From Halomonas sp. M4R1S46 (GTDB taxonomy: Bacteria > Pseudomonadota > Gammaproteobacteria > Pseudomonadales > Halomonadaceae), in NCBI RefSeq assembly GCF_025725685.1, contig NZ_CP107008.1, forward strand, positions 684,235-716,234: 32,000 bases of DNA, written 5' to 3'. Below the pieces are notes generated by a model. That model was not told the origin of the DNA. It saw only the letters and a program-made list of their open reading frames with translations, and did not search any database. Every line of letters starts with the position of its first letter. Position 1 is the stretch's first letter. Of the stretch, positions 16,171 to 31,936 are shown in pieces. A program made the translations under genes and the position numbers.

Positions 16171-16189
16171 GGGGGCATATCTGGGGGCA
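16171..16189 (+). repeat. Left copy of 19-bp direct repeat GGGGGCATATCTGGGGGCA (candidate attL core)
   Basis: It is identical to 31918-31936. It lies 115 bp after tRNA-Lys copy 2 and 32 bp before the integrase ATG. It overlaps a possible int promoter (-35 TTGACA at 16152-16157). Confidence 0.6.
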
Positions 16190-16221
16190 GAACCCTGCCC
16201 GGCCCGGGAGGTGCCCCCACC

Positions 16222-17469
16222 ATGTCGACCCTGCGCCAGCTCAACAAGCTGACCGCCACCGCCGTCCGCAACGCCAAGCCCCGCGAGAAGACGTACCGCC
16301 TGGCTGACGGTGGGGGCATGTACCTGGAAATCACGCCAGCTGGGGGCATGTACTGGCGGCTGAAGTACCGCCACCATGGCAAGGAGAAGCGCCTGGCGAT
16401 CGGCGTCTATGGCGAGGGTGCCGGCAAGGTGTCGCTCGCCCAGGCCCGCAATGCCCGCGACGAGGCCAAGGAGATGCTGGCGCAGGGACTGGACCCCAGC
16501 ACCGCCAAGCGGCTCGCCAAGGAGCAGGGCAGGGCGGACGCCGATAACACCTTCAAGGCCGTGGCCACCGAGTGGCTGGAGCACATCCACAAGCATGAGG
16601 TGGTGCCCGCCCACTACGACCGCAACAAGCGCCGCCTCGAGCGCGACATCTTCCCCACCCTGGGCCACCGGCCGGTCGGCGAGATCTCTCCTCCCGAGCT
16701 GCTGGACTGCCTGCGTAAGGTCGAGAAGCGGGGGCACCTGGAGACCGCCTCGAGGATCAAGACCGTCTGCGGCCAGGTGTTCCGCTACGCCATCTCGACC
16801 GGCAAGGCCCGGCGCGACCCCGCGGCCGACCTGCGTGGCACCCTGCGGCGCGCCAGGACCCGGCACTTCGCCGCCGTCACCGATCCCAAGGAGATTCCCG
16901 CCTTGCTGCGGGCCATCGACGGCTATGGGGGCACGCCGGTGGTGGTGGCCGCCCTCAACCTGTCGCCCCTGGTCTTCGTCCGTCCGGGTGAGCTGCGCCA
17001 CGCCAAGTGGGCCGACTTCGACCTGGAGGCGGCGACCTGGTCCTTCCAGCCCAGCAAGAAGGCCGACCCCCTGATAGTGCCGTTGCCCAGCCAGGCGGTG
17101 GAGATCCTGCGCGACCTGCAGGGCCTCACCGGCCGCGGCGACTACGTGTTCCCCAACATCCGCGACAGCAAGCGCCCGATGAGTGACAGCACCATCGGCG
17201 CCGCCCTGGACACCATCGGCTACAAGAACCGGATGACCGCCCACGGCTTCCGGGCCATGGCCAGGACCGTGCTCGCTGAGCGCCTCGGCTACCCCGAGCA
17301 GTACATCGAGCAGCAGCTGGCGCACAAGGTCCGTGACGCCAACGGCCGAGCCTACAACCGGACCAAGTACCTGGAGCAGCGCCGGGAGATGCTGCAGAGC
17401 TGGGCCGACTACCTGGACGCCATGCGCGATGGCGCCGGCAATGTGGTGCCGATCCGGGGGGGAGCGTGA
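16222..17469 (+). CDS. int: Tyrosine recombinase, P4-type integrase
   Basis: 415 aa. The N-terminal arm-binding-type region reads LTATAVRNAKPREKTYRLADGGGMYLEITPAGGMYWRLKYR. The C-terminal catalytic region carries HGFRAMARTVL, QLAH and AYNRTKY (R-H-R-Y type residues). It is adjacent to a tRNA gene. Confidence 0.92.
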   Translation: MSTLRQLNKLTATAVRNAKPREKTYRLADGGGMYLEITPAGGMYWRLKYRHHGKEKRLAIGVYGEGAGKVSLAQARNARDEAKEMLAQGLDPSTAKRLAKEQGRADADNTFKAVATEWLEHIHKHEVVPAHYDRNKRRLERDIFPTLGHRPVGEISPPELLDCLRKVEKRGHLETASRIKTVCGQVFRYAISTGKARRDPAADLRGTLRRARTRHFAAVTDPKEIPALLRAIDGYGGTPVVVAALNLSPLVFVRPGELRHAKWADFDLEAATWSFQPSKKADPLIVPLPSQAVEILRDLQGLTGRGDYVFPNIRDSKRPMSDSTIGAALDTIGYKNRMTAHGFRAMARTVLAERLGYPEQYIEQQLAHKVRDANGRAYNRTKYLEQRREMLQSWADYLDAMRDGAGNVVPIRGGA

Positions 17470-18041
17470 AGAAAGAGTACGGACTGCTGGCGCCTGTTAT
17501 CGCCAAGCTGGAGAGCTGGACCTCGGAGGATGCCATACACGCCTATCACGAGTGGCTCGAGGATGGAGGAAGCTTTGAGGCCGTCTCCAACCCTGTTATC
17601 CAGTGGCATGTATGGCACGAAGATCTGCCGTGTCTTCGAGAACGATATGAGCGAGGGGATTCGCTGGCGCTACTAAAGGCGGTGGAACGCTGCGCCGTGA
17701 TAGGCCTGCCCTTTCCAACCTGGTGTAGAGAGGCGTACCTAAAGTCCTGGCGCAAGGCCTCTCAGTATGAGTGCCGCACACTGGATGAGGCATTCGATTA
17801 CGACATGAAGGGCATTAACCTTGCGAGGGCTAGAGAACGCTTCCTTCTCTCCGTGAAAGTCGCCAGTGAAGTGAGGCGTATGCTCAATTCCGGTAATACG
17901 GTGGAAAAGGCGCTTGGGGTTGTCGCTGAGCAAAACGACATCTCATTTTCGCGCGCTCGCGAGTGGTATTACGAATTGCGCGATGACCCGAGTGTTGCCC
18001 ACCTTCTTCCAGGAAAATCCGAAATCCCCCGGAAAGACTGA
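17466..18041 (+). CDS. Hypothetical protein (possible regulator; C-terminal HTH-like segment)
   Basis: 191-aa ORF starting at GTG 17466 in a GTGA overlap with the int stop. It is visibly lower in GC than its neighbours. The C-terminal VEKALGVVAEQNDISFSRAREWYYE looks helix-turn-helix-like. No family was recognised. Confidence 0.6.
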   Translation: MKKEYGLLAPVIAKLESWTSEDAIHAYHEWLEDGGSFEAVSNPVIQWHVWHEDLPCLRERYERGDSLALLKAVERCAVIGLPFPTWCREAYLKSWRKASQYECRTLDEAFDYDMKGINLARARERFLLSVKVASEVRRMLNSGNTVEKALGVVAEQNDISFSRAREWYYELRDDPSVAHLLPGKSEIPRKD

Positions 18042-18098
18042 GCGCACCGCCCCCACCATCCTTAGCCATGCCCATAAGCAACCAAGGAGCACCCTGGC

Positions 18099-18317
18099 AT
18101 GGCTGGCAACGATACCCCCACCAAGCGCCTGATCAAGCGCCCCGAGGTTCGTGAGAAGACCTCCCTCAGTGACAGCGAACTGTATCGGCAGATGGCGGCC
18201 GGGACCTTCCCACGCGCCATTCGCCTGACCCCGAACGGCAGAGCGGTCGCCTGGCTCGAGTCCGAGGTAGATGCCTGGATCGAGAGCCGCCTGGTAGACC
18301 GCGAGGGGGTGGCCTGA
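18099..18317 (+). CDS. alpA: AlpA-family (HTH_17 / MerR-like) transcriptional regulator or excisionase
   Basis: 72 aa, with SD AAGGAG 9 nt upstream. RPEVREKTSLSDSELYRQMAAGTFPRAIRLTPNGRAVAWLESEVDAWI matches the AlpA pattern (short HTH followed by W-x-x-x-E-V/I-x-x-W). Confidence 0.8.
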   Translation: MAGNDTPTKRLIKRPEVREKTSLSDSELYRQMAAGTFPRAIRLTPNGRAVAWLESEVDAWIESRLVDREGVA

Positions 18318-18409
18318 TGTTGACCGCTGACCCTACCCCCGGCTATGCTCCAACCGTCACGGCAAAATCCGTGACCCGGTTTGGCGACCGGAAATATCCA
18401 AGGCGCACC

Positions 18410-18438
18410 AGCGCCCTCCGCGAAACAGGCGCTTTTTT
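18410..18438 (+). terminator. Possible terminator after alpA
   Basis: AGCGCC (18410-18415) / GGCGCT (18428-18433) stem with a 12-nt loop, followed by TTTTTT. Confidence 0.45.
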
Positions 18439-18592
18439 CATGCCTGCACTTCGCGAATATGGCGGCTGTGCGTGGGAGACCCTCGGGTCTGCCGGTTCCC
18501 TTGGATGCCGGTTCGCCAACCTGCGTACAGCCGCCCCCAATCACTGTTTGGCGACAGTCGGGGACGGTTCCATCATCCAAGGAGCCCTACCC

Positions 18593-18763
18593 ATGAACAA
18601 CCCCACCCGCAATCCGTCTGCGCGCGCCGCTGCCCACCGGGCCATGGCGAGAGCCGCCCTGTTCAGCGACACCAGCGCCAGCACCCGCCTGAAGCGTTAC
18701 AACCACCACATCACCAAGGCCCGCGCCCTGGAAGCCCCTGCCGGCCAAGGGGAGGCATCATGA
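18593..18763 (+). CDS. Hypothetical small protein (56 aa), first gene of the replication operon
   Basis: ATG 18593 is preceded by SD AAGGAG. Its stop overlaps the next start (ATGA). Confidence 0.5.
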   Translation: MNNPTRNPSARAAAHRAMARAALFSDTSASTRLKRYNHHITKARALEAPAGQGEAS

Positions 18764-19098
18764 GCGCCTTCAACGTCTACCTGGCCCGAACTACCACTGA
18801 GATCGAGATCCACGCCCCAAGCTGGCGCGAGGCCCTCTACCGTGCGGGGCGGCCTGATGCGTGCATTGTTGCGCGACTTGGCCCCGGGAAGTTCGAGGCG
18901 ATCTTCAATCCTGACGCCCCCACAACCATCGGCTGCCGTGCCCGGTGCGCGTCCGATGCGGAGGCGCTTCGCTGGACGCTTGCGAGCGTCGCCCACCAGG
19001 TAGCCCAGAGGGAAGCCGCCCGCCGCGCCCTGGCCGAATTTGCCGACGGCGTCGAACCGGGCACCTACCAGCCGGCCGGCAAAAGGGGGCAATCATGA
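18760..19098 (+). CDS. Hypothetical protein (112 aa)
   Basis: ATGA-coupled at both ends. Coding-like amino-acid composition. No family recognised. Confidence 0.55.
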   Translation: MSAFNVYLARTTTEIEIHAPSWREALYRAGRPDACIVARLGPGKFEAIFNPDAPTTIGCRARCASDAEALRWTLASVAHQVAQREAARRALAEFADGVEPGTYQPAGKRGQS

Positions 19099-19322
19099 GC
19101 CACCTGACCCGTGACAACAGCAAGGCCGAGGACATCGAGGAGATTGTCTCGGCCATCCACGGCATCGCCCGCCTGGTCAACGAGGACCTGGCGCGCAAGC
19201 CCTCTGCGAACACCCAGCCCTTCCTCGGCGAAACCGAGCTCGGTGACTTGATGCTCGCCGTCGAGCACCTGTGCTCCTATGCCGAGGGCATTGCCGAGGA
19301 CATTGGGGAGGGCAAGTCATGA
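19095..19322 (+). CDS. Hypothetical acidic protein (75 aa)
   Basis: ATGA-coupled at both ends. Confidence 0.55.
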   Translation: MSHLTRDNSKAEDIEEIVSAIHGIARLVNEDLARKPSANTQPFLGETELGDLMLAVEHLCSYAEGIAEDIGEGKS

Positions 19323-19540
19323 CCCCGACCGACATCACCATGGACATCGGCGCCACCGGCCTGGTGGATGCCATCGATCGCACCCGCTATGCCATGGCCA
19401 AGCAGGTACCGAGTGTTGCGGATGAGCTGGCCACCAACTATGGCCCGCTGGTGCTCACTGCCCACGAACAAGCCGACCTGCGGATATTCCTCGACGAGAT
19501 GCTCCGTCGCCGGATGGGGATCCTGGAGGCGCAGCTATGA
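19319..19540 (+). CDS. Hypothetical protein (73 aa)
   Basis: ATGA-coupled at both ends. Confidence 0.55.
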   Translation: MTPTDITMDIGATGLVDAIDRTRYAMAKQVPSVADELATNYGPLVLTAHEQADLRIFLDEMLRRRMGILEAQL

Positions 19541-20061
19541 CGACCCCGCAATCGACAGCGCCCCGCCGGCAGGGCGGGGCACCTAAAGCGAGTTTTGGAA
19601 GGGCTCCACAGCAGTCTAGCGCGCTCGGCGCCGACGTGCACCGGCTGCTGGCGCGACTGGACAAGGTGAAGACCAACGGCCCGGAGCGCTGGCTGGCCTG
19701 CTGCCCTGCGCACGACGACCGCTCACCGAGCCTGGCCATCCGTGAGACCGAGGACGGCACGATCCTGGTGAAGTGCTTCACCGGCTGCCCGACCGCTGAT
19801 GTGTTGGCCGCCGTGGGCATGGAGATGTACGAGCTATTCCCCAGGCGCGACAACGATGCCTTCCGCGCCAGCAAGCGCCCCGGGGAGCGATGGGTGCCCC
19901 GGGACGTGCTGGCCGCCATCGCCCGCGAGGCGTTGGTGGTCATGCTGGCAGCTGAGGCGGTCCACGCCGGCCGGCCCCTGGAGCGTGTCGACCTGGCTCG
20001 TCTGGCCAAGGCGTCCGGCCGGCTGCGTGGAGCTGCTGAGGAGGTGGGTTGCCATGTCTGA
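19537..20061 (+). CDS. Stand-alone primase-type CHC2 zinc-finger protein
   Basis: CCPAHDDRSPSLAIRETEDGTILVKCFTGC follows the DnaG zinc-binding pattern CPFHxExTPSF...CFGC. At 174 aa it has no recognisable Toprim or primase catalytic region. It overlaps the next gene by 8 nt. Confidence 0.6.
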   Translation: MTTPQSTAPRRQGGAPKASFGRAPQQSSALGADVHRLLARLDKVKTNGPERWLACCPAHDDRSPSLAIRETEDGTILVKCFTGCPTADVLAAVGMEMYELFPRRDNDAFRASKRPGERWVPRDVLAAIAREALVVMLAAEAVHAGRPLERVDLARLAKASGRLRGAAEEVGCHV

Positions 20062-21106
20062 ACACGATGCGGGAATCAGCTGGCTCGATAGGCAGGCGGC
20101 CACGGCGACGCGGCTGCGGCCAGCTCCCAGCGATGGGCCACCCACGCCCCCAGCCACCGCCTACGAGGCGACCGCCGCCGAGCTCCAGCTGAACCCCATC
20201 AGCCTGGGTGACTTCCTGAGCCTGGACATTCCACCGCGAACCATGCTGCTGGCGCCCTGGCTGCCTACCAGCGGCCTGGCCATGGTCTATGCGCCTCGAG
20301 GCATCGGCAAGACCTGGTTTGCGATGTATGCGGGCTATGCCGTGGCCGCGGGGGGATCGTTCCTCGGCTGGGAGGCGCCAGCACCGGCGCCCGTGCTCTA
20401 CCTGGACGGCGAGATGCCGGCTATCGCGCTTCAGGAGCGGTTCGCGAGCATCATCCAGAGCACGGAGTACGAGGCGGCGCCCGAGGCCCTGCAGCTGCTG
20501 ACCCCTGACCTCCAGCCCAAGGGGATGCCGGATCTCTCGACCCTCGAGGGGCAGCTGGCGCTGGAGCCCTTCACCGATCCCGCCCGCCTGATCGTGGTGG
20601 ACAACATCTCCACTCTCTGCCGGACCGGCAAAGAGAACGAGGGGGAGAGCTGGTTGATGGTGCAGGAGTGGGCGCTGCGCATGCGGGCCCAGGGCAAGAC
20701 CGTGCTCTTCGTCCACCACGCCGGCAAGGGCGGCCAGCAGCGGGGCACCAGCCGCCGCGAGGACGTGCTGGATACCGTCATCGCGCTCCGCTATCCGAAG
20801 GGTGAGGACGAGGATGCCCAGGGCGCCAAGTTCGAGCTGCATTTCGAGAAGAACCGCGGCTTCTATGGCGAGGACGCCAAGGGGCGCGAGATCGAGCTGG
20901 TGAGCGCTCCCAGCGGGGCCACCACCTGGTCCTGGCTCCCGCTGCAGGAGAGCACCTATCAGCGAGTCGTCGACCTGCTCAATGAAGGGCTGAGCCCGAC
21001 CGAGGCGGCCCGGGAGCTGGACATCCACAAGAGCACCGCCACCCGGTACCGAAAGCGCGCCGACCGCGATGGCCTGCTGGCCAAGAAGTCAGGGGGTGAG
21101 TCATGA
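20054..21106 (+). CDS. RecA-like AAA_25/RepA-type replicative ATPase (putative helicase) with C-terminal HTH
   Basis: Walker A YAPRGIGKTW and Walker B-like LIVVDNIS are present, followed by VLFVHHAGKGGQQRGTSRRED. The C-terminus LNEGLSPTEAARELDIHKSTATRYRKRA is HTH-like. Confidence 0.75.
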   Translation: MSEHDAGISWLDRQAATATRLRPAPSDGPPTPPATAYEATAAELQLNPISLGDFLSLDIPPRTMLLAPWLPTSGLAMVYAPRGIGKTWFAMYAGYAVAAGGSFLGWEAPAPAPVLYLDGEMPAIALQERFASIIQSTEYEAAPEALQLLTPDLQPKGMPDLSTLEGQLALEPFTDPARLIVVDNISTLCRTGKENEGESWLMVQEWALRMRAQGKTVLFVHHAGKGGQQRGTSRREDVLDTVIALRYPKGEDEDAQGAKFELHFEKNRGFYGEDAKGREIELVSAPSGATTWSWLPLQESTYQRVVDLLNEGLSPTEAARELDIHKSTATRYRKRADRDGLLAKKSGGES

Positions 21107-21636
21107 GCGATCGCCCAGAGTTGCACGTTGCACCCCCTAGGGGATGCAACCCGCAACTTTCCCAAGAAGAGGGGGCAACTTTTCCCCCGTCCGATGCAAC
21201 CGGTCATGCAACCGGCAGCCTGAAAGCCTTGGCTGACAAGCGGTTGCGGGAGATAGAAAGCAACCGGGCGTGCAACTCGCCTGCAACCGAGGGGCCTGAA
21301 AGCGTGCAACTTTCGGCCGACTCGGCGACCCCTGAAGTTGCACCCGAGGCAGGACCCGAGACCGTGAGCCGGATGGACTGGTTGGAGTGGGTCACGGCCC
21401 GGGTACCGCTGGTGCGTGAGGATCGGGAATACGTTTGGTCCCGCCTGGCCACACTGCCGCCCCATGCCATGGAGCGGGCGGCCAAACGATACGTCCAGAC
21501 CTGGGCCGAGGCCGCTGCGGCCGAGCCGAAGCCCCACCGGAAGGAGAACGCCGGGCGACGTGCCGCGAACCACACCCTCCTGGCCTTGATCCAGCCGAAG
21601 TGCTGGCGCTGGAAGCAAGAGCACCGTAGGCCGTGA
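21103..21636 (+). CDS. Hypothetical protein; 5' half coincides with the iteron array
   Basis: Its ATG sits in an ATGA overlap with the helicase stop. The N-terminal 85 aa are low-complexity because they translate the TGCAAC repeats. The C-terminal part from ATG 21373 (MDWLEWVTARVPLVRED...) looks more protein-like. The true start is uncertain. Confidence 0.45.
   Translation: MSDRPELHVAPPRGCNPQLSQEEGATFPPSDATGHATGSLKALADKRLREIESNRACNSPATEGPESVQLSADSATPEVAPEAGPETVSRMDWLEWVTARVPLVREDREYVWSRLATLPPHAMERAAKRYVQTWAEAAAAEPKPHRKENAGRRAANHTLLALIQPKCWRWKQEHRRP
21120..21342. repeat. Iteron cluster, putative origin of replication
   Basis: Forward (T/A/C/G)GCAAC copies start at 21145, 21152, 21174, 21195, 21207, 21259, 21271, 21282 and 21305. 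Inverted GTTGCA copies start at 21120, 21127 and 21337, with a variant GTTGCG at 21243. CCTGAAAGC also occurs twice (about 21219 and 21294). Confidence 0.6.
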
Positions 21637-21721
21637 GCAACCAGGAGTCTGAACCATAATCCATACCCCTATCACGCCTGCCGTTGCCTACCGCTGACCC
21701 GATCGACCTGGCGGTGTGTGC

Positions 21722-22060
21722 ATGGACACACCGCGCATCAACGACTGGCTGGACTCCGAGCTCGTGCAGATCAGTCGCAAGGAGGCGGCCCTGCCAGCGG
21801 CCGTTTCCTTGCCTGAACTGGGCGATGGCAACGGCCTACCGTGGGATCTCGACGAGCTGCCCGACATCGATCTGATCACCCGGGACGGCGAGGTGTGGGC
21901 AAGGGGTACGCAAATTGCTCACGCCTTGGGCTACCACTGGCTGCCCCAGGGCCACCGACCATGTGAAGACGATGGGGCTGATCATCACGCGTCACGAACC
22001 CAACGGGATCGGCTGACACCCGCCCCACTGACCACCCCGAGCCACACCATGAGGAATTGA
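21722..22060 (+). CDS. Hypothetical protein, possibly a degraded Bro-N/antirepressor-like remnant
   Basis: DLITRDGEVWARGTQIAHALGY resembles the Bro-N/KilAC-type motif (xxGEPWFVAKDVAxALGY), but similarity is lost immediately afterwards. The SD is weak. Confidence 0.3.
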   Translation: MDTPRINDWLDSELVQISRKEAALPAAVSLPELGDGNGLPWDLDELPDIDLITRDGEVWARGTQIAHALGYHWLPQGHRPCEDDGADHHASRTQRDRLTPAPLTTPSHTMRN

Positions 22061-22202
22061 CTCGACACCTTGGGCCCGCTGGTCCCGGCGCTGAACAACA
22101 CTCGGCTTCGCTCACTCACGCTCTCGGCGGGGAGCCTTATCATTCCTGCGCCCTGTGGATAACTATGGCGAAGTTCACAATATTTTGTGCCATTTGTGGA
22201 AG

Positions 22203-22214
22203 ATATGCGCATAT
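22203..22214. promoter_or_regulatory. Perfect 12-bp palindrome ATATGCGCATAT (candidate operator)
   Basis: Read directly from the sequence. It lies in the AT-rich gap just upstream of TATAAA (22219-22224). A second inverted repeat, CACAA-TATT-TTGTG, sits at 22176-22189. Confidence 0.35.
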
Positions 22215-22233
22215 GTGCTATAAACAAGGGAGG

Positions 22234-22249
22234 CTGTATATATGGACAG
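22234..22249. promoter_or_regulatory. LexA (SOS) box-like site CTGTATATATGGACAG
   Basis: It fits the gammaproteobacterial CTGT-N8-ACAG consensus with an AT-rich centre, matching 14 of 16 positions of CTGTATATATATACAG. It lies just downstream of the -10-like TATAAA and ahead of the tape-measure/terS operon. Confidence 0.6.
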
Positions 22250-22256
22250 GTAACGT

Positions 22257-22427
22257 ATGGGGCATCCGCTAAACCTTCCACCTCGTGGCAAGCAGATGAA
22301 GCCAACCCGCCACCGACGGCGTGAGCTGTACGACATGCTCGAACGGATGGCCAACGAAGGTGATCCCCACGCCGTTGGCTGGCTCCTGTTCCTCAGTGAG
22401 CCGGTACCGAGATCTGCAGCGAAGTAA
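22257..22427 (+). CDS. Small hypothetical protein (56 aa), not in the ORF track
   Basis: Hand translation gives MGHPLNLPPRGKQMKPTRHRRRELYDMLERMANEGDPHAVGWLLFLSEPVPRSAAK*. It is preceded by a strong SD AAGGGAGG (22226-22233) and a 3-codon mini-ORF ATG GAC AGG TAA (22242-22253). Confidence 0.35.
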   Translation: MGHPLNLPPRGKQMKPTRHRRRELYDMLERMANEGDPHAVGWLLFLSEPVPRSAAK

Positions 22428-22494
22428 TACTGGAACACGCTATCCATCGCTTTCATCGCATCCGGTGCTGGCGCGAACTGAAACAGGAGGGTCA

Positions 22495-25308: not shown

Positions 25309-25781
25309 GCAAGAAAACGCCCCTCCAGGGGGGGCTGGGTGACTCTGGCGCTGAAGACAAGCCGGCCGGGTATTGGCAGCTGGTGACGAAGCTGGCCGTC
25401 GCGAACCTGGCCGAGAAGAAGCATCGCCGCCAGCGGCTGGCGCACCTGGAAGCCCTGCGCGCCCTGGTGAAGGACCCGAGGGGAGTGGACTGCCCTGAAA
25501 TCGAGGCCGCTGGGCGGGCGCTGGCTGAGGCGCCGGAGGTGGCGATTCTGGAGCCATTCAATGCCTTTTCTGCTGCGGTGGCGGCTCGGGCCCGCGAAAC
25601 AACAGACCTGGGGGAGGGGCAGGCACTGAGTCACCTGTCCACGCGCGTGATGGAGGAGATGACCGCCTTGAGTGAGGCCATTGATGCGCAGCTGGCGGCC
25701 AGCAATGAAGCGGCCCTTATTCGGGCTCAGGCGCTTCGCTTGATGGAAGAGCAGAAGAAGGGGCCGGGGGTGCTTCATTGA
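25305..25781 (+). CDS. Hypothetical protein, paralog A
   Basis: 158 aa, with an ATGA overlap with the tape-measure stop. It shares GV(D/S)CP...AAG.AL, PF.AF and GEG...L..R.M..M..L blocks with the next gene. Confidence 0.6.
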   Translation: MSKKTPLQGGLGDSGAEDKPAGYWQLVTKLAVANLAEKKHRRQRLAHLEALRALVKDPRGVDCPEIEAAGRALAEAPEVAILEPFNAFSAAVAARARETTDLGEGQALSHLSTRVMEEMTALSEAIDAQLAASNEAALIRAQALRLMEEQKKGPGVLH

Positions 25782-25914
25782 GCGCGGCTGCGAGCATCTC
25801 GCTACTAGCCGGGGGCATGGTACATGTGCCACCCGCCGCTCTGCTGGCGCCTGAACGCCCCGGCCTCCTGGGCCAGCCGCGCCCTCGAACGAAAGCAAGG
25901 GGGAGGGGGTATTG

Positions 25915-26349
25915 ATGCCGACCAGCATGATCATCGAACTGGGCGAACGCGAGGCCGCCGCCCGCGCCCGCCGCGACTATCACCACCAGCGCTTCGACCG
26001 GGTGCTGGACAACCTCAAGGCGCTGGGCGCCCGATCCCCGGGCGTGTCCTGTCCGAAAGTCCAGGCCGCCGGCCTGGCGCTGTCGAAGGCCTCCCGTGGC
26101 GAGGTGCAAAAACCCTTCATGGCCTTCGCTGACGCGCTGCTCGAGTACGCCCGCACCGAACCTGAAAAAGACCAGGGGGAGGGGGTGACGCGTCTGGCCA
26201 GCCGGGCCATGGGCCATATGCGCGAACTGGCACACCACGTTGACCATGAGGTCACGGCGCAGCGAGAGCTCCAGTTATTCGCGCACTTGCATGAGCAGGC
26301 GCGCCAGCAGCTGGGTGAGGCGTCCCAGCCGCGAGGGGCGGGGGCATGA
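25915..26349 (+). CDS. Hypothetical protein, paralog B
   Basis: 144 aa from ATG 25915 ([15 protein letters not shown]). Paralogous to 25305-25781: GVSCPKVQAAGLALSKA vs GVDCPEIEAAGRALAEA; PFMAFADAL vs PFNAFSAAV. Confidence 0.6.
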   Translation: MPTSMIIELGEREAAARARRDYHHQRFDRVLDNLKALGARSPGVSCPKVQAAGLALSKASRGEVQKPFMAFADALLEYARTEPEKDQGEGVTRLASRAMGHMRELAHHVDHEVTAQRELQLFAHLHEQARQQLGEASQPRGAGA

Positions 26350-26471
26350 GCGCCACCGCGCCCCAATCCCTGACGGCGGCGGCTGGTGCGTGTCAGCGGC
26401 AGAGCGCCGAGCTGGCGCTGGGCGCTCCGGCAGCGTCCTCGCGCGCTCGCCAGGCTTCAGCCGGCAGAAAA

Positions 26472-26494
26472 TCGCGGGTCCTTCTGGCGGCCCC
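26472..26494 (+). repeat. 23-bp repeat copy 1 (TCGCGGGTCCTTCTGGCGGCCCC)
   Basis: It matches 29825-29847 at 22 of 23 positions in direct orientation. It lies in the apparently non-coding stretch upstream of terS. Confidence 0.6.
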
Positions 26495-26687
26495 TACCCC
26501 GTCCACGGGGACGCAGAGTCCCGGAGTTCGACAAAATTTCGGTGCCCCTGGGTGCTCCACCGCAGGTGGCAGCAAGCCCAGGCATGGCGCGGGATCTGAG
26601 CTGTACGAGCTGAGCATGGCGGCACGAGGATCGGCCGCCTCGATGTACAGGTGAAGGAGGAGCGCCGCTGGCGCTGACAGGCAGACG

Positions 26688-27197
26688 ATGGGCGAGGTGA
26701 TCGGACGCGAACAGGCCTACCACTGGTCGATCAGCCGCATCGCCGAAGCGATCGGTCGCGACCGGCGCACGGTGGCGACGCTGATCAAGGATGCCGGGAT
26801 CCCGCCGGCCGGTACCCGTCGCGGGAATCCCGTGTACCGGCTGGGTGATGTGGTCGACGCGATAAGCACCGACCGCCGCCCCGCCGCCAGTGGTATCGAC
26901 ATAAACGACCTGATGCCGCAGGACCGCAAGGCCTGGTACCAGTCGGAGAACGAGCGGGTGAAGCTGGAGCGCGAGCTGCGCCACCTGGTGCCGGTGGACG
27001 ATGTCCAGCGAGAGATGGCCGCCCTGGCCAAGGCCATGGCCTCCAGCCTCGACAGCCTGGCCGACATGCTCGAGCGGGATGCCGGGCTGCCGCCGGAGGC
27101 GATTGAGATGGTCGAGCGTGTGACCGACGCCATTCGCGAGCAGATGTACCGCGCGATCATCGAAAACGACGACGAAGACGCCGCCGCGGAAGCGTGA
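26688..27197 (+). CDS. terS: Nu1-like small terminase subunit (winged-HTH DNA-packaging protein)
   Basis: SISRIAEAIGRDRRTVATLIKDAGIPPAGTRRGNPVYRLGDVVDAI parallels lambda Nu1 (KKQLADIFGASIRTIQNWQEQGMPVLRGGGKGNEVLYDSAAVIKWY). It is followed by a coiled region ENERVKLERELRHLVPVDDVQREM, typical of this TerS family. The C-tail is acidic. Confidence 0.68.
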   Translation: MGEVIGREQAYHWSISRIAEAIGRDRRTVATLIKDAGIPPAGTRRGNPVYRLGDVVDAISTDRRPAASGIDINDLMPQDRKAWYQSENERVKLERELRHLVPVDDVQREMAALAKAMASSLDSLADMLERDAGLPPEAIEMVERVTDAIREQMYRAIIENDDEDAAAEA

Positions 27198-27242
27198 CGG
27201 CCACCGCCGGCGCCGCCGGCCAACGAGAAGGAGAGCAGCACC

Positions 27243-28310
27243 ATGACCACTGCGACGAAAAGTAAGGCGCCGGCCGCGGCGGAAAGCTGGAGCACCTGGC
27301 TCGAGCAGCTCGACCAACTCCAGGAGGAGCGCGCCGAGATCACAGGCCTGGGCGAGGCCCGCAAGATGCTGGAGCGCGCCAAGATGGGCGTCCAGTATGT
27401 CATCCGCCTGGCCGATCACTACCACTACCCGGGCCGCTTCAAGCATTCCAGTGCCGAAGACGACACCGAGGTTCTGCTGGAACTGATGAGGCATATCCGC
27501 GCCGATACAAGTCGCGCCCTTCAGGCGACGAACTGGCACGACCAATCGGCGGAGCGCCAGGCCTACATCAAGGATCTGGACGCCCGAGCGAAGCGGGCCG
27601 CCGCCAACTTGCAGAAGGCGGCCGAAGAAGCCGCAGAGCTGGAGCATGCCCGCGGGGAAGTCGATCAGCGTCTCGAGGATCTGGAGGCCAAGGCGCCGAA
27701 GGCCTCGGCAACCAGCCTGGCCGCCCTGCGCAAGGAGCGCGACGCCGCCACCGCCGAGCGTGACCGGATCGCCAAGTCGCTGGGCAACATGACAGCGGAT
27801 GACAGCCCGCTGGCGCTGGCGCGGGAAGCCGAGCAAACCGCCCAGGAACGCCTCGATGAAGCGGAGGCACTGCTGGCCATGGGTGAGGCCAATGACGAGG
27901 ACGTGAAGGCCGCGAAGAGCGAGGCGGACAAGGCCCACAAGGCGCTGGAGGCGCGTCAGGCCGACCACCGCAGCCAGGATGCCGCCCGGCGCGGCATGTC
28001 GCGCAAGCTGGAGCAGGTCGACAGTCGCCTGGAAACCCTGAGCCGGGCCTATCGCCAGGCGCTGGGGCGTGTGCGGCATGCCGACCTGGCGGCGCTCGAA
28101 GGCGAGATTGTCGAGGAGATCGAGCGCATCGCCCAGCAACGCCTCCAGGCCCTGGCCGCGATCTATGCCGACCTGGAGGAGGCCGAGCCGGGCAACTCAT
28201 ACGGCCCCGCTCGCCTCGAGGTGAAACTGCCCCACCTCCACCACCACCGGGAGGCCGACATGCTCAACGGCCACGGCCTGACGATCACCGCCTATGGGCG
28301 GGAGGAGTGA
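27243..28310 (+). CDS. Coiled-coil protein (355 aa), function unknown
   Basis: SD GAGAAGGAGAG lies upstream. Long A/E/R/L/K heptad-like stretches occupy the central ~200 aa. No enzymatic motif was seen. Confidence 0.65.
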   Translation: MTTATKSKAPAAAESWSTWLEQLDQLQEERAEITGLGEARKMLERAKMGVQYVIRLADHYHYPGRFKHSSAEDDTEVLLELMRHIRADTSRALQATNWHDQSAERQAYIKDLDARAKRAAANLQKAAEEAAELEHARGEVDQRLEDLEAKAPKASATSLAALRKERDAATAERDRIAKSLGNMTADDSPLALAREAEQTAQERLDEAEALLAMGEANDEDVKAAKSEADKAHKALEARQADHRSQDAARRGMSRKLEQVDSRLETLSRAYRQALGRVRHADLAALEGEIVEEIERIAQQRLQALAAIYADLEEAEPGNSYGPARLEVKLPHLHHHREADMLNGHGLTITAYGREE

Positions 28311-28313
28311 CCC

Positions 28314-28571
28314 ATGCCCAATTCAAGCCCATATCGCAGTGCCGCCTATCGCAAGGCAGCGCGCGCCGCGGCCTTCAGCCGCATCAAGGCGGAGGAAGAG
28401 CGCACGCCGGAGCGCATCGAGGAAGATCTGGCCGCCGCTCGCCAGAGAGTCGAGGAGCTGGAGCGGGAGCTGGCAGACGCCAAGCACAAAGATGAGGAGC
28501 CAGTGGAGGCCCGGCTAGACATCAATCGCATCTATGCCCGGCAGAATGGCCGGAAGGGGGAGCGGGCATGA
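28314..28571 (+). CDS. Hypothetical charged helical protein (85 aa)
   Basis: SD GGAGGAG lies upstream. Its stop overlaps the next start (ATGA). Confidence 0.5.
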   Translation: MPNSSPYRSAAYRKAARAAAFSRIKAEEERTPERIEEDLAAARQRVEELERELADAKHKDEEPVEARLDINRIYARQNGRKGERA

Positions 28572-28822
28572 TCGTCACCCGACCCCGCGGAGCCATCGTT
28601 ACCAACCCCGCTCGGCGCACCGCGGCCGAGCTGGACCAGCCAAACCTCCGCTACGCGGCACCGCTGGACCGGTGCCGGCAGCACCAGGTGGAACTCTATA
28701 CCCGCGGCGGCCGCCGCTTTGCCCGGTTGTTCGGCGAAGACCGCGAAGCCCTCCAGGCGCGTGCCGATCGCTGGCGCGCGCATATCTCGCCCAGCCTCGA
28801 GCAGCGCTGGCCAGAATCCTGA
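28568..28822 (+). CDS. Hypothetical basic protein (84 aa)
   Basis: ATGA-coupled to the previous gene and followed by a terminator. Confidence 0.5.
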   Translation: MIVTRPRGAIVTNPARRTAAELDQPNLRYAAPLDRCRQHQVELYTRGGRRFARLFGEDREALQARADRWRAHISPSLEQRWPES

Positions 28823-28866
28823 CCGTGGCTGGTTCCAGGGTGCCCGGGTCTCGTCAGCCCGGGCTT

Positions 28867-28895
28867 GGGGTCACCATATCGGTGGCCCCTTTTTT
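28867..28895 (+). terminator. Rho-independent terminator closing the tape-measure/terS operon
   Basis: GGGGTCACC-ATATC-GGTGGCCCC (9-bp stem with one G-U pair) followed by TTTTTT. An additional GCCCGGG...CCCGGGC hairpin lies just upstream (28841-28863). Confidence 0.75.
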
Positions 28896-28983
28896 CACCG
28901 TCGACCGCTGCCCCGCTGTAGGGCGCCGCCGAACGCTACCGCGCCAGCCTGCGTAATGGGCAACCACCATCGGAGGCCGTGCC

Positions 28984-29250
28984 ATGCCGATGATCAATGA
29001 AGAGATCACCCGCCACCCTGTGGAGTACCGCCGTGAGCGCCTCGAGGAGGAGCGAGACCGTCTGGAGCGGCGCCTGACCTGGGCAGTGAATCGCAAGGAG
29101 GCCAGGCAGGTCGAGCGCCTGACCCGGCAGCTGGCCGAGATCGATCGGGAACTGGAGCGGCCACCCGAGGACCTGGAGGGGCGGGGCCGGGCGACATCGC
29201 TTCGCCGGCAGTACGGCGCGGAGTTGTGTGACGCCCTTGGGTGGCACTGA
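28984..29250 (+). CDS. Hypothetical charged helical protein (88 aa)
   Basis: ATG 28984 has a GGAGG-containing upstream sequence. The protein is R/E-rich. Its stop overlaps the next ATG by one base. Confidence 0.5.
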   Translation: MPMINEEITRHPVEYRRERLEEERDRLERRLTWAVNRKEARQVERLTRQLAEIDRELERPPEDLEGRGRATSLRRQYGAELCDALGWH

Positions 29251-29524
29251 TGACTGCCGAGGCCCCGAGCTCCCTCCTCCTGCGCGGCGCCCCGGTGCCT
29301 GATGACCTCTGGGACCCGGCAGACTGCCGCGCGCTGTGGATCGCCGCCCTGGAGATGTACCTGCGCGACGCGATCGCCGCGGCCAAGGGGAGCGAACACA
29401 GGGAGGCGGTAGCGGCCCTTCACGACCTGATGGGCGGCTGGAGATGCTGGCGCGGCTGTGCGAGCCCCTGGGGCTGGAGGTGGAGTCAGTCGCCGAGGGC
29501 ATGAGGGCCAGGGCCTACTCCTGA
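29250..29524 (+). pseudogene. Hypothetical gene interrupted by an apparent -1 frameshift near 29.43 kb
   Basis: The frame from ATG 29250 reads plausibly to ...AVAALHDLMGG, then becomes W/R/C-rich (WRCWRGCASPWGWRW). The -1 frame continues plausibly as RLEMLARLCEPLGLEVESVAEGMRARAYS* and ends at 29524. Confidence 0.4.
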
Positions 29525-29769
29525 GCCTTGTTCGTGGCCTTGTCGCGCTCGTTCATCTCGGTGACAGCCCGGTGGACGTCATCCTCTTGTGTGGCTTGGA
29601 CCCACCCACCCAGGACGCCGATGAAGATGATGATGCTGGCCACCAGGTAGGCCCACCAAGGGCCGGGCCAGTCGCGCCACAGCCCGAAGGCGATGGGGAT
29701 GATCACCGCCGCTGTGAGGCACCAGCCTGCCGCCGCGTTCTTCTGCTGATCGAGTTTGTTCTCTGCCAT
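29515..29769 (-). CDS. Small two-TM membrane protein (holin-like architecture)
   Basis: 84 aa with two hydrophobic spans (WCLTAAVIIPIAFGLW and WWAYLVASIIIFIGVLGGWV). The C-tail is highly charged (EDDVHRAVTEMNERDKATNKAQE). Confidence 0.6.
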   Translation of the reverse strand: MAENKLDQQKNAAAGWCLTAAVIIPIAFGLWRDWPGPWWAYLVASIIIFIGVLGGWVQATQEDDVHRAVTEMNERDKATNKAQE

Positions 29770-29824
29770 GTCTCGCTCCCTGCGCTGAGTGGCTTTCAGT
29801 CTAGCCTAGCGAGGCTCGATGAAT

Positions 29825-29847
29825 TCGCGGGTCCTTCTGGAGGCCCC
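29825..29847 (+). repeat. 23-bp repeat copy 2 (TCGCGGGTCCTTCTGGAGGCCCC)
   Basis: It matches 26472-26494 at 22 of 23 positions. It lies in the 122-bp gap between the BRCT gene stop and the membrane-protein start. Confidence 0.6.
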
Positions 29848-29891
29848 GCCGCCGTCATGACCGGATGCGGGGCTGGCGCTGGGTGCCGGAG

Positions 29892-30530
29892 TTATAGCCA
29901 GTTAGCCCAGTGGCGCTCGCTGATCAGATGAATGTCGCGGCCATCGCGGCGCAACTCCACGGCGTGCTGGATCTTGCGTCCGTAGTTCGACTGGGCCCAG
30001 TCATCGCTGCCCAAGTTGCCGATAACAACGAAGTGGGTGGCGCGGCTGGGGCTTTTCTGGGGCTGTCCGCCGCGCTGCACGATCTCGGCCTCGCACTCGC
30101 GGCGCGTACCAGTGACGAAGCGCCCGGTCAGCACGAAGTTAGAACCTTCGAATACGACATCCGGCACCGGGTCGCAAAGGGGTAGGGCAGTGGATTGCCG
30201 GCTGGAGCTGGAGCCGCCTTGGGTGGAGCCACCGCCAGTATAGTCGAGCAGCAGTCCGATCAGTTCGCCCTCTTCCTCGGCATCCAGAACGCCATCGCCG
30301 AGCATTTCCTCGAGGCGAGGGAAGAGCACGTTGAAAGGCCAGACGGCCAGGGCCTCGGGACGCTCTCCAAGCCACTGGAGCAGGTATTCGGCCTCGGCCT
30401 GGTTGACCGAGCCATCGGCGAGCATCCCGCGGGCCAGCCCGCACAGCTCATTGGCATCCCGGGTGGTGTTCCTGGCCATGCTGAGCCGGCGCGTGACCGG
30501 CTGGCCGTGGTGGTCGAGTTGGATAGGCAT
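29892..30530 (-). CDS. TerB-like N-domain / BRCT C-domain protein
   Basis: 212 aa from ATG at 30530 (SD GGGAGAG). The N-terminal ARGMLADGSVNQAEAEYLLQWL fits the TerB/DjlA-N type DGxxxxxExxxL motif. After a G/S-rich linker, the C-terminal FVLTGRFVTGTRRECEAEIVQRGGQPQKSPSRATHFVVIG...GRKIQHAVELR...ISERHW parallels the LigA-type BRCT domain. Confidence 0.7.
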   Translation of the reverse strand: MPIQLDHHGQPVTRRLSMARNTTRDANELCGLARGMLADGSVNQAEAEYLLQWLGERPEALAVWPFNVLFPRLEEMLGDGVLDAEEEGELIGLLLDYTGGGSTQGGSSSSRQSTALPLCDPVPDVVFEGSNFVLTGRFVTGTRRECEAEIVQRGGQPQKSPSRATHFVVIGNLGSDDWAQSNYGRKIQHAVELRRDGRDIHLISERHWANWL

Positions 30531-30746
30531 GGGACTCTCCCTTGTTATGGTTCCCTGCGGGCCGTGGGCCCGCAAGGTAGTTTGGCAAAGGGAGGTGAGG
30601 TCTGCCCGTACTGGTGCCCAGGAGCCGCGGGGAGGGGTACCCGTTTCGGGTACGCTTTCCAGGTGGTCCTCGCCGTCGCTATGGCCGGAGGTAGCTGCTG
30701 GCGCTGTTTGTTGATGTGTTCAGCTGGGATCAGGACCCGACTCAAT

Positions 30747-30914
30747 TCAGCGGTCTATGGCCGCGACGTTGTAGAAGATCCTGCCATCGGGGGCCTTCCG
30801 CCAGATGCGCCCCTCAGGCCATGTGCCGTCCTTCCGCTTGTGGTCGATCGCTGAGCGCGAGTAGCCGTAGAGCTCCGCCAGCTTGTTCCGAAGAACCCAT
30901 TTGTTCTGTGCCAT
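30747..30914 (-). CDS. Excisionase-like small DNA-binding protein (55 aa), not in the ORF track
   Basis: Hand translation of the minus strand gives MAQNKWVLRNKLAELYGYSRSAIDHKRKDGTWPEGRIWRKAPDGRIFYNVAAIDR*. This fits a lambda Xis-like pattern (HTH, then W..G....K...GR.....A). Confidence 0.6.
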   Translation of the reverse strand: MAQNKWVLRNKLAELYGYSRSAIDHKRKDGTWPEGRIWRKAPDGRIFYNVAAIDR

Positions 30915-31085
30915 CGTTGCCCCCTAGTGCCGTGCTTCAACACATCAATCATGACAACCCGCCGCACCTCCTCCAGACTCCCGCTACGCTTTCCAGATGG
31001 TCACGCCAACACCATGGCCGTAGGTGGTACTGGCAGTACGGGTGCCGAGCGCTCGCTAACAGGTAGACCTCTAGGAGGGGGAGGT

Positions 31086-31304
31086 ATGTCCACCGGGAAA
31101 CTGATGTCCCTGGAGGAGTGGCGGAAGGCTCGGTTTGCAGGCGAGCCGCCAGCCATGTCGACCATTCGCAAGTGGTGTCGGGAAGGCCACGTGCCTTCGA
31201 AGAAGATCGGGGGTAGCTGGTTCATCGATCTGGATGCTGAAGCGCGACAGACAGGGAATCCCTTGGCCGATGCCGTGCTGAATGGGGAACGGAGGATCGA
31301 CTAA
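31086..31304 (+). CDS. Excisionase-like small DNA-binding protein (72 aa)
   Basis: ATG 31086 is preceded by [57 protein letters not shown] resembles lambda Xis (LTLQEWNARQRRPRSLETVRRWVRECRIFPPPVKDGREYLF). Confidence 0.65.
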   Translation: MSTGKLMSLEEWRKARFAGEPPAMSTIRKWCREGHVPSKKIGGSWFIDLDAEARQTGNPLADAVLNGERRID

Positions 31305-31346
31305 GCCGCGGTCACGGGCGAATCGGCAGGTATACGGGAGGTCGGG

Positions 31347-31583
31347 ATGAAAGAAGCAGGCAACACTACCACTGAGCAGCCGCCACTGCGCTTCCTGAAG
31401 GTACGCGACGTGTGCGACAAGATCGCGGTGTCGCGTTCTCGGCTCTACGAGCTGCTGATCGAAGATGAGGACTTCCCGAAGCCGTTCAAGGACAGTGACA
31501 GCCGCCAGGCGCCCAACTACTGGGTTGAGCACGAGATCGAGGAGTGGATGCGTCGGCGCATGGAGAGGGCAAGACGTCGGTAG
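31347..31583 (+). CDS. Second AlpA-family regulator/excisionase
   Basis: LKVRDVCDKIAVSRSRLYELLIEDEDFPKPFKDSDSRQAPNYWVEHEIEEWM fits the AlpA/HTH_17 pattern. Confidence 0.75.
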   Translation: MKEAGNTTTEQPPLRFLKVRDVCDKIAVSRSRLYELLIEDEDFPKPFKDSDSRQAPNYWVEHEIEEWMRRRMERARRR

Positions 31584-31649
31584 CTGGGCGCCGTTGAGCG
31601 CTTGTCTCGACGCCTGGATAAGATCGAATCAGAGATCGGCGCCGTCCCA

Positions 31650-31681
31650 GCCCCGCCGGGGAGCGCACCGGCGGGCTTTTT
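31650..31681 (+). terminator. Rho-independent terminator after the second alpA-like gene
   Basis: CCCGCCGG (31652-31659) / CCGGCGGG (31668-31675) stem with an 8-nt loop, followed by CTTTTT. Confidence 0.65.
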
Positions 31682-31917
31682 CGTCTGGCCCGGTGCTGGC
31701 GCCTCGAGAACATCAAATCGGGGGTCTGGGGCTGGTGACCGCGCGTGCCCGGGTGACCGGGGGCCGAGGCGGTCAGATTGACTGCCTCGGGAGGCTGGCG
31801 CCCGTGTGCGCGTGACACGACGTGTGGGCAAGGGGGCCCCAAATTGGGGATGCCTTGGGCCCCGCGCGCCCTGGTACTGAGCCCAGATTTCGGCCGAGTG
31901 GGTGATCTCGTCTTTAT

Positions 31918-31936
31918 GGGGGCATATCTGGGGGCA
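31918..31936 (+). repeat. Right copy of 19-bp direct repeat GGGGGCATATCTGGGGGCA (candidate attR core)
   Basis: It is identical to 16171-16189. It is preceded by non-coding DNA containing a 12-bp-stem hairpin (31764-31790). Confidence 0.6.

Follow-up and report, generated by a model that had tools for sequence, protein, structure and literature searches.

An integrated Halomonas island with a P4-type backbone and its own cos-like block, TerS and tape-measure genes as a candidate satellite of lambda-like siphophages

The DNA analysed here is a 32,000-nt stretch of the Halomonas sp. M4R1S46 genome (contig NZ_CP107008.1, positions 684,235 to 716,234; hereafter the window), the right half of which holds an island that we describe as a candidate phage satellite. 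The 19-mer GGGGGCATATCTGGGGGCA occurs exactly twice in the window (chance expectation about 0.01 even with three mismatches), and its two copies, the putative attachment (att) cores of the island, are 15,747 bp apart. The G+C content between them is 0.60-0.69, compared with 0.70-0.73 in the left flank and about 70% over the window as a whole. The left flank consists of housekeeping genes (purL, a helicase gene, scpA, and rluB) up to two identical tandem tRNA-Lys(UUU) genes (15875-15950 and 15981-16056), which were found with ARAGORN and Rfam and had already been recognized in an earlier interpretation of this DNA made from its letters alone (the sequence-only reading). That reading also associated the 19-bp repeat with the tRNA-Lys locus. 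The repeat is exact and does bound the island, but it is not the 3' end of the tRNA gene. The left copy lies 115 bp 3' of the second tRNA-Lys gene, after a terminator-like hairpin, with the start of the integrase gene (int) 33 bp inside it, and the window contains no second copy of the tRNA-Lys 3' end.

The left part of the island (Table 1) resembles the P4 genome. The integrase is of the same family as P4 Int, with 37% identity along the whole protein (E 1e-80), the att core is located just 5' of int as in P4, and the AlpA protein encoded at 18099-18317 is 38% identical to P4 ORF88/Vis. Between these two genes, the 191-aa open reading frame (ORF) has no match in Pfam, PHROGs, PADLOC, or NCBIfam, and none in the sister loci described below. 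Downstream of alpA, the matches to the C4, isrK, and c4-a1b1 RNA families all exceed the Rfam gathering score, and the trio occurs in P4 in the same order between vis and the replication operon. The P4 scores for C4, isrK, and c4-a1b1 are 74.9, 60.8, and 44.1 bits (76.6, 51.1, and 51.7 in the window); the P4 trio sits between ORF88 and the epsilon-alpha operon, and its C4 match falls on the annotated cI. P4 CI RNA and P1/P7 C4 RNA are structurally related RNase P substrates (PMC5499578). Directly 3' of C4 in the window are TTTGGCGAC, which matches a1, and CCAAGGAG, which matches b1 and is the Shine-Dalgarno sequence of the 56-aa ORF at 18593-18763. By analogy with P1 c4/icd, we infer that the C4 loops pair with these a2/b2 sites. 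The sequence-only reading had described a P4-type integrase, an unknown gene, AlpA, and a coupled chain of small genes in this part of the island. The first three are supported, and the overlapping chain is real from position 18593, but 18317-18590 is a C4-type RNA system rather than protein-coding DNA. A 148-aa ORF was rejected as a gene because the stretch holds the C4 RNA unit by Rfam.

The replication genes follow in a chain of overlapping ORFs (18593-21636), in which adjoining ORFs share 4-8 nt at stop and start. As in P4, they are placed at the operon end, and a size of about 12-16 kb and the lack of capsid genes are also shared with P4. The 112-, 75-, and 73-aa ORFs have no family match in Pfam or PHROGs. 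The primase zinc finger and RecA-like helicase named in the sequence-only reading fare differently: the AAA_25 helicase with its C-terminal helix-turn-helix (HTH) domain is clear, but the zinc-finger protein is only weakly primase-like, with a CHC2 match under the Pfam cut-off and a match to the DNA primase N-terminus in PHROGs.

The right half is an operon that contains the genes for a tail tape-measure protein (TMP) and a small terminase (TerS), and most of its predicted content was confirmed. The regulated AT-rich promoter is represented by an AT-rich stretch (about 22150-22260) with the palindrome ATATGCGCATAT, and nhmmer matched this region only in islands (the window and the sister islands L005, L006, and L008) and not in phages. 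The adjoining 43-aa ORF is 37-58% conserved in L005-L008. The tape-measure-like gene encodes a full-length TMP, and the Nu1-like small terminase is a DUF1441-family TerS. The two paralogs are the all-helical proteins orf158 and orf145, which are 26% identical. The orf145 family comprises 13 clusters in 5.8 billion proteins, and all organism-named ones are from Halomonas or Billgrantia; its AlphaFold2 (AF2) model is a four-helix bundle (pLDDT 90) with no significant PDB match. The coiled-coil protein is the 355-aa cc355, which occupies the position of the large terminase (TerL) in phages. Its family comprises 38 representative clusters in 1.84 billion proteins, all of about 330-368 aa, and its AF2 model is a long helical bundle (pLDDT 93.5). 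Identification of cc355 as Sid, a scaffold, or another known protein was rejected: a PDB-sequence profile search, PHROGs searches with 30 members, and Foldseek searches of PDB and BFVD returned nothing more specific than generic coiled-coil or F-BAR-like matches. Our guess is that orf158, orf145, and cc355 are candidates for TMP partners or inhibitors, or for a capsid-size scaffold. Pfam and PHROGs searches with every ORF of the window found no gene for TerL, portal, capsid, protease, tail tube, or lysis/lysin, and tblastn with the TerL, portal, protease, major capsid protein (MCP), and tube of lambda-like Halomonas phages gave no match in the island, in agreement with the absence of TerL, portal, capsid, tail tube, and endolysin noted previously.

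Table 1. Features of the island and its left border, with positions in the window
Feature	Position	Strand	Evidence or remark
tRNA-Lys(UUU) pair	15875..16056	+	Left flank, outside the element; ARAGORN, Rfam
19-bp direct repeat, left copy (putative attL core)	16171..16189	+	Exact match; 33 bp 5' of int
P4-type tyrosine integrase, 415 aa	16222..17469	+	Arm-DNA-bind_3 1.5e-24, Phage_int_M 4.8e-35, Phage_integrase 1.4e-12
191-aa ORF, accessory slot between int and alpA	17466..18041	+	No family match
AlpA/Vis-type excisionase-regulator, 72 aa	18099..18317	+	Phage_AlpA 9e-17
C4/CI-type antisense-RNA immunity unit	18320..18541	+	Rfam and promoter scan
Sigma-70-like promoter	18320-18349	+	Promoter scan
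c4-a1b1 element	18343-18395	+	Rfam 51.7 bits
isrK-like element with terminator	18356-18438	+	Rfam 51.1 bits
C4 antisense RNA	18455-18541	+	Rfam 76.6 bits
Putative a2/b2 target sites and first regulated ORF (56 aa, 18593-18763)	18545..18763	+	Sequence reading
Three small ORFs (112, 75, 73 aa)	18760..19540	+	4-nt stop/start overlaps; homologs in L005, L006, L008
Zinc-finger protein, weakly primase-like, 174 aa	19537..20061	+	Zn_ribbon_DnaG (CHC2) 2.5e-4, under Pfam cut-off; phrog_6088 DNA primase N-terminus 1e-13
AAA_25 (RepA/RecA-like) helicase with C-terminal HTH, 350 aa	20054..21106	+	AAA_25 2e-27, HTH_23 3.7e-7, phage primase/helicase PHROGs
orf177 and orf114	21103..22060	+	orf177 C-terminus matches phrog_852, conserved in L006; orf114 without assignment
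Island-specific AT-rich promoter region (22178-22290) and conserved 43-aa ORF (22296-22427)	22178..22427	+	5' of the TMP gene
Full-length TMP, 937 aa	22495..25308	+	PhageMin_Tail 3.6e-32, TIGR01760 2.9e-39, phrog_991 5e-62
orf158 and orf145, paralogous all-helical proteins	25305-25781 and 25912-26349	+	Paralogy by comparison
cos-like non-coding block, about 195 bp	26466..26659	+	Directly 5' of terS
TerS, DUF1441 family, 169 aa	26688..27197	+	DUF1441 1.7e-41, phrog_141 7e-49
cc355, elongated helical coiled-coil protein, 355 aa	27243..28310	+	Occupies the TerL position of phages
orf85 and orf84, then strong terminator (28867-28889) closing the operon	28314..28889	+	Conserved in sister islands
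Accessory region	28984..30575	mixed	orf88, orf87, mem84, partial cos copy, 227-aa protein
orf88 and orf87	in 28984..30575	+	
84-aa membrane protein (mem84)	29515-29769	-	Homolog in L007
227-aa protein with BRCT-like C-terminus	29892-30575	-	phrog_3989 (function unassigned) 3.8e-56
Excision/regulation cluster	30747..31675	mixed	Next to the right repeat
DUF1233-like Xis	30747-30914	-	93% identical to the DUF1233 gene at the L006 right end
Exc-like protein	31086-31304	+	Pfam Exc 5.2e-6
Second AlpA	31347-31583	+	Phage_AlpA 2.1e-9
Terminator	31652-31675		Just inside the right repeat
19-bp direct repeat, right copy (putative attR core)	31918..31936	+	Exact match

Starting from TerS homologs, we reached four sister islands: L005 in Halomonas sp. 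H10-9-1, L006 in Halomonas sp. 1513, L007 in Billgrantia montanilacus, and L008 in Halomonas sp. E14. Each of them retains the order TMP, one or two paralogs, cos block, TerS, coiled-coil protein, and small ORFs. The TMPs of the five islands are intact (about 914-959 aa), and so are the ORFs of L005-L008 except the coiled-coil gene of L005. The C4/isrK/c4-a1b1 trio is also found in L005, L006, L008, and the metagenome contig L034, and it is kept in the sister islands wherever the left part is visible; the 56-aa ORF is 76-85% conserved in L005, L006, L008, and the more distant island L089. The replication modules of the sisters vary, being Rep_O+DnaB, Toprim_3+DUF3987 (present in L006 and L089), or a Toprim_3/AAA_25 fusion. 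The sister islands run into chromosomal and tRNA genes, without capsid genes. When homologs were checked against complete prophages, orf145, cc355, and the island TerS clade were found only in small capsid-less islands (L005-L008 and L089) and were absent from the phage database and IMG/VR (orf145 and cc355 without a match in the former, cc355 without one in the latter), which supports the satellite reading on this point.

The relatives also differ from one another in several respects. In L005, an insertion-sequence transposase gene (DDE_Tnp_1; 11363-12718) splits the cc355 homolog, and both halves still match cc355. In L007, the region 3' of the coiled-coil gene (12665-13391) contains short ORFs that match TerL_nuclease (57 aa), Phage_connect_1 (117 aa), and Phage_HCP (83 aa), and these are either debris or satellite-encoded head-tail connector genes. 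Another contig of B. montanilacus carries a second member of the family (P0018, P0128, P0223). L006 contains a 183-aa ORF with a weak match to Minor_tail_Z (lambda gpZ) between the paralogs and cos (9174-9725), and Fic and SocA_Panacea cargo genes before its right end (12456-13802). The tRNA genes of the sister loci are at the right end, on the minus strand and far from the replication side (L005, 15027-15335; L007, 13806-13892; L008, 13375-13448), whereas the tRNA-Lys pair of the window is on the left beside int, indicating that family members differ in their integration sites or orientations. L089 (GCA_008298015, VTPX01000008; 301-12063) is a compact P4-like island with int, alpA, Toprim_3, DUF3987, a 234-aa ORF, a cc355 homolog, and DUF3800. 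It has neither TMP nor TerS, its cc355 homolog is distant, and its neighbors are a second integrase gene and Abi_2. As a marker of satellites, the coiled-coil protein thus reaches further than the TMP module. In two IMG/VR metagenome contigs, L032 (106-6586) and L034 (1545-17243), TMP, the cos-like block, and TerS precede a portal homolog (31%); further features of L034 are a DnaB-size gene and the C4, isrK, and a1b1 elements. Both look like phage-inducible chromosomal islands of the capsid-forming type (cf-PICIs) that share the placement of TMP upstream of terS.

The cos-like block is the most conserved DNA among the five islands. In nhmmer searches, the island matches had E values of 1e-46 to 1e-56. 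About 25 IMG/VR viral contigs, many as large as a complete phage, matched with E values down to 7e-24, and in the phages the block has the same position 5' of TerS. The top conserved motifs are CGCGGGTCCTTC, CCACGGGG, and AAATTTTCGG; closer to terS, islands and phages have different TGTACA-containing sites. This pattern would fit a shared cosN and a diverged cosB. A structured RNA was rejected for the block, because the left hairpin arm is neither conserved nor compensated, which points to a DNA site rather than an RNA structure. A 102-aa ORF at 26346-26654 was likewise rejected as a gene in favor of the conserved non-coding block. No similarity was found between the block and coliphage mEp460, the record of which is linearised at terS and not at cos.

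The IMG/VR contigs with the cos-like block (36-54 kb) have the gene order TerS, TerL (about 700 aa), portal (about 500 aa), protease, MCP (about 330 aa), and tube, with the TMP homolog about 10 kb downstream. In tblastn comparisons, the TMP of the window is 75% identical, uniformly along its length, to the TMP of a Halomonas borealis prophage (L001) and 73% identical to that of an H. koreensis prophage (L090), compared with 43-54% to the TMPs of the sister islands. The TerS identities are 71-83% between islands and 52-61% between islands and phages, and the islands form a TerS clade of their own. TerS is closer among islands and TMP is closer to phages; TerS is therefore the marker of the island lineage, and TMP appears to have been exchanged with, or tuned to, phages. 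Both prophages are lambda-like, with GpA terminase, gpW, Phage_portal_2, ClpP, gpD-like, Phage_cap_E, gpFII-like, gpZ-like, tube, and TMP genes, and they are close to the IMG/VR phages with a DUF1441 TerS and a cos-like block (TerL 72%, portal 78%, MCP 79%). The island TerS is 37-44% identical to the TerS that directly precedes the GpA-type TerL in mEp460, cdtI, and Gifsy-2, and homologs of TerS and TMP occur together in the cultured phages Cr-LKS3 and Cy-LDV1.

As the TMP and the TerS/cos block are clearly lambda-like in origin, we considered whether the right half could be the remnant of a decaying lambda-like prophage that kept TMP and TerS by chance, beside an unrelated P4-like integrase and replication cassette. 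The short TerL_nuclease, Phage_connect_1, and Phage_HCP ORFs of L007 could be debris of such a prophage, and the coiled-coil gene of L005 carries an insertion sequence. However, five islands keep the same non-contiguous subset of genes with intact TMPs, and TMP lies 5' of cos-TerS with island-only genes between and after them, whereas the TMP of the phages is about 10 kb downstream of TerS. The island TerS is a clade of its own, and the module occurs in combination with any of three replication modules and has an island-specific promoter, which is not expected from random decay. We thus give the remnant explanation very little weight.

These comparisons lead us to read the island, with a probability of roughly 75%, as an integrated helper-dependent satellite of lambda-like (cos, GpA-terminase) Halomonadaceae siphophages on a P4-type backbone. 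The satellite interpretation offered by the sequence-only reading is supported by this comparative evidence, that is, the P4 backbone, the sister islands, and the links to helper-type phages. Of the island's parts, only TMP and the TerS/cos family in its wider sense are shared with complete phages, and the confinement of the island-specific genes to islands fits a satellite that borrows from its helper.

Several points weigh against the satellite reading. We infer excision, replication, packaging, and TMP incorporation from sequence, and the block 5' of terS is called cos from its position and conservation. The putative att core lies outside the tRNA gene. No Toprim or AEP (archaeo-eukaryotic primase) catalytic domain was found in the primase-like protein in profile scans. 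The iterons of the sequence-only reading were not recovered, and TRF, a repeat search, and 9-mer counting gave no iterons or origin in 21.6-22.5 kb and the other intergenic regions, the best candidate being four dispersed 9-mers with one mismatch each. No tail-assembly chaperone was identified, and orf145 is unlike known chaperone folds. No resident helper prophage is evident, as M4R1S46 has a single entry each among the TerS and the TMP matches listed; the TerS and TMP of the window are 100% identical to NCBI proteins of this strain. The sequence was read to position 32,000, and the gene absences hold within the window. The presence of structural genes past 32 kb is argued against by the exact repeat, by the Xis, Exc, and AlpA genes and the terminator inside its right copy, by the sister islands that run into chromosomal genes, and by the single appearance of the source strain in each of the two lists. 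The island is a real bounded element.

For an integrated satellite of this kind, we propose the following life cycle. In the integrated state, the promoter at about 18320 would make the C4 RNA, which would pair with a2/b2 over the ribosome-binding site of the first ORF and silence the replication genes, in the manner of P1 immI and P4 cI. A helper signal would lift the C4 block. Excision at the 19-bp core would be carried out by Int together with AlpA/Xis, and replication of the excised element by the primase-like protein and the AAA_25 helicase. The island-specific promoter at about 22.2 kb would then switch on the TMP-TerS operon. The island TerS may bind the island variant of cos and recruit the helper TerL, and the 15.7-kb genome would be packaged into helper heads. 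Because this genome is about one third of the size of the 36-54 kb phage contigs, small capsids or the packaging of trimers are suggested. In the helper tails, the island TMP would replace or compete with the helper TMP and give rise to chimeric tails, as in PLE11, a satellite of Vibrio cholerae.

The same genes could instead belong to an integrative anti-phage interference island that is not packaged, in which the TerS and TMP homologs and the helical proteins poison the terminase and tail assembly of invading lambda-like phages and the island spreads by another route. Interference with tail assembly is a known defence, and genes of this type occur in satellites, Rta of PLE11 being one (PMC12987554; PMC11364771). 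A cc355 homolog is present in the P4-like L089 without TerS or TMP, beside Abi_2, and the source genome shows no evident helper prophage among the matches listed. On the other hand, a phage-type cos block is kept in exactly the phage position as the best-conserved DNA, and a pure decoy needs no packaging site in cis. A complete excision and replication apparatus is also kept, and PADLOC found no known defence protein, only a coiled-coil match to DndD at 1e-4. Interference and self-transfer can, moreover, coexist in satellites. We consider an interference island that is not packaged to be unlikely.

Within the satellite reading, a further proposal, which we put forward tentatively and consider less likely than not, is that the island represents a Halomonadaceae satellite lineage in which the P4 backbone has swapped sid-delta-psu for a "lambda-hijack" module and the TMP gene has repeatedly been swapped with that of the current helper. 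The swapping of TMP is suggested because the TMP is 73-75% identical to prophages and 43-54% identical to sister satellites, while TerS is satellite-specific. If this were the case, TMP, the two helical paralogs, and cc355 would form a selective take-over system for tails and heads. In one version, an Rta-like block of the helper TMP would be combined with a resistant satellite TMP; in the other, the satellite would escape TMP-targeted superinfection exclusion and redirect capsid size. Chimeric-tail piracy would then be general for siphophage satellites and not a peculiarity of PLEs.

The resemblance of the island to P4 ends at its replication and cargo genes. No sid, delta, psu, or epsilon was found in the island, as tblastn of all island proteins against P4 matches only int and ORF88, and Pfam Psu, Ogr_Delta, and Sid gave no match. 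P4 has the alpha primase-helicase (Toprim + DUF3987/D5-type), whereas the island has the zinc-finger protein and the AAA_25 helicase. P4 has only the cos of its helper, a P2-like myophage, whereas the island has its own TerS, TMP, and cos variant and would use a lambda-like siphophage. Gram-negative PICIs (for example EcCICFT073 and PmCI172) reportedly have int, alpA, and replication genes that all point the same way, with a packaging module after them, in about 10-15 kb (Fillol-Salom et al. 2018). Some of them (Pasteurella type) are said to encode TerS; they reportedly have no capsid or lysis genes, and the PICI definition is said to exclude structural genes. The island agrees with these elements in its int-alpA-replication order, its size, its putative specific att site, and its gene for packaging redirection (TerS), and differs from them by a structural gene (TMP), by the P4-type RNA immunity, and by having cos and its own TerS in the Nu1 position rather than Rpp or a bare cos. 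Unlike cf-PICIs, which have their own MCP, portal, protease, and connectors and no TerL, the island shows no portal, protease, or MCP gene, and neither do L005-L008; in the distant L032 and L034, a portal homolog accompanies TMP, cos, and TerS. A complete temperate lambda-like prophage differs by the TerL, portal, MCP, tail-tube, and lysis genes that the island does not have within the window.

Satellite-encoded TMPs have precedents in other systems. PLE11 builds chimeric tails with its own TMP in otherwise helper-made tails (Mathur, Boyd et al., Nature 2026, PMC12987554), and the same paper mentions putative tmp genes in certain cf-PICIs and in PLE-like elements (PMC12987554, Extended Data Fig. 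10). PLE11 and the island have only the concept of a satellite-encoded TMP in common; the backbone, integrase, and replication genes of PLE11 appear unrelated, and its host is Vibrio cholerae rather than Halomonas. The helper of PLEs is the lytic myophage ICP1, and the PLE TMP is only about 20% identical to the helper TMP, compared with the 73-75% of the island to prophage TMPs. PLEs also encode a tail-assembly chaperone (TAC) and a baseplate hub (BhuB), whereas family scans of the island gave no chaperone or hub match, and no Rta homolog was identified. The EPIPs of Mycolicibacterium are small satellites with TerS and TMP and an altered tail length (bioRxiv Dec 2025, PMC12822802); unlike the island, they have a serine integrase and capsid, scaffold, and adaptor genes, and their hosts are actinobacterial. 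Pseudomonas phiAH14b is a 16.8-kb satellite with int, alpA, a Toprim primase, a helicase, and a homolog of helper tail assembly (PMC4936722), and it differs from the island in having no TerS or TMP and in headful packaging. The statement of the sequence-only reading that the cargo matches no known satellite layout thus needs to be qualified. The lambda-type cargo is unlike that of P4, but the left half has the P4 layout of int, AlpA, and RNA trio, and the TMP has precedents (PMC12987554, PMC12822802).

Within the literature that could be searched, no earlier description of this Halomonas satellite family was found. As satellite TMPs are already precedented, what the evidence supports as new is a P4-backbone satellite that has turned to lambda-like siphophages and brings a cos, TerS, and TMP of its own. 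The first demonstrations of satellite-encoded TMPs date only from 2025-2026 and came from the lytic myophage-PLE system, and the island family would add an independent example from temperate siphophages. At least five islands, about 15-20 related protein clusters, and helper-type prophages in H. borealis and H. koreensis are available as comparative material, and a TMP identity of 73-75% to prophages is close enough to ask which features decide tail incorporation. The family also illustrates modularity, in that one P4-type int/vis/CI-RNA backbone joins varied replication modules and a different helper-exploitation module (cos, TerS, and TMP). Current classifiers would mislabel the island, since it would fail as P4-like (no sid/delta/psu), as a strict PICI (a structural gene), and as a cf-PICI (no capsid genes).

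The last part of the island, beyond the terminator that closes the TMP operon, contains the accessory region and the excision/regulation cluster. The TerB-BRCT protein of the sequence-only reading is the 227-aa protein, of which the C-terminal part weakly matches LigA BRCT (3e-5) and a DnaQ-BRCT family; its N-terminal half has no match, and the TerB part was not supported in family scans. A partial copy of the cos block (35 nt, 86% identical to the start of the block) is located at 29822-29856 after the gene of the 84-aa membrane protein, the L007 homolog of which lies directly 5' of the full cos block, and the stretch 29515-29856 looks like a relic of another family member. These observations raise the possibility that the island is composite, with a satellite core that ends at the terminator at 28889 and a last segment of about 2.4-3 kb (29.5-31.9 kb) derived from a second related element by tandem integration or recombination. 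The second AlpA and two more Xis-type genes would agree with such an origin, as would the 93% identity of the Xis to L006, compared with 54-83% for core genes, and a 43-nt repeat that links 21889-21931 with 31818-31860. The interval has, however, a single integrase and a single pair of 19-bp repeats; the Xis-type genes of L006 have the same right-end position, and Xis genes next to attP-int are normal in the circular form. We regard a composite origin as possible but doubtful, and it concerns the history of the island rather than its function and is compatible with the satellite reading.

Two further observations concern the ends of the island. The first 11 nt of the att core (GGGGGCATATC) recur at 15840-15850, between the -35 and -10 elements of a promoter-like site 5' of the first tRNA-Lys gene, and the left att copy is directly 3' of a TTGACA. 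The att core may thus be part of a promoter-like sequence, and insertion of the island may have cut in two the promoter of a gene that lies beyond the right end of the window. The 43-nt direct repeat is 81% identical between its copy inside orf114 (21889-21931) and the copy 58 nt before the right att core (31818-31860), and the similarity stops at the repeat edges; the repeat could serve as a binding site, either of the arm type or for a regulator, or could have been left behind by recombination.

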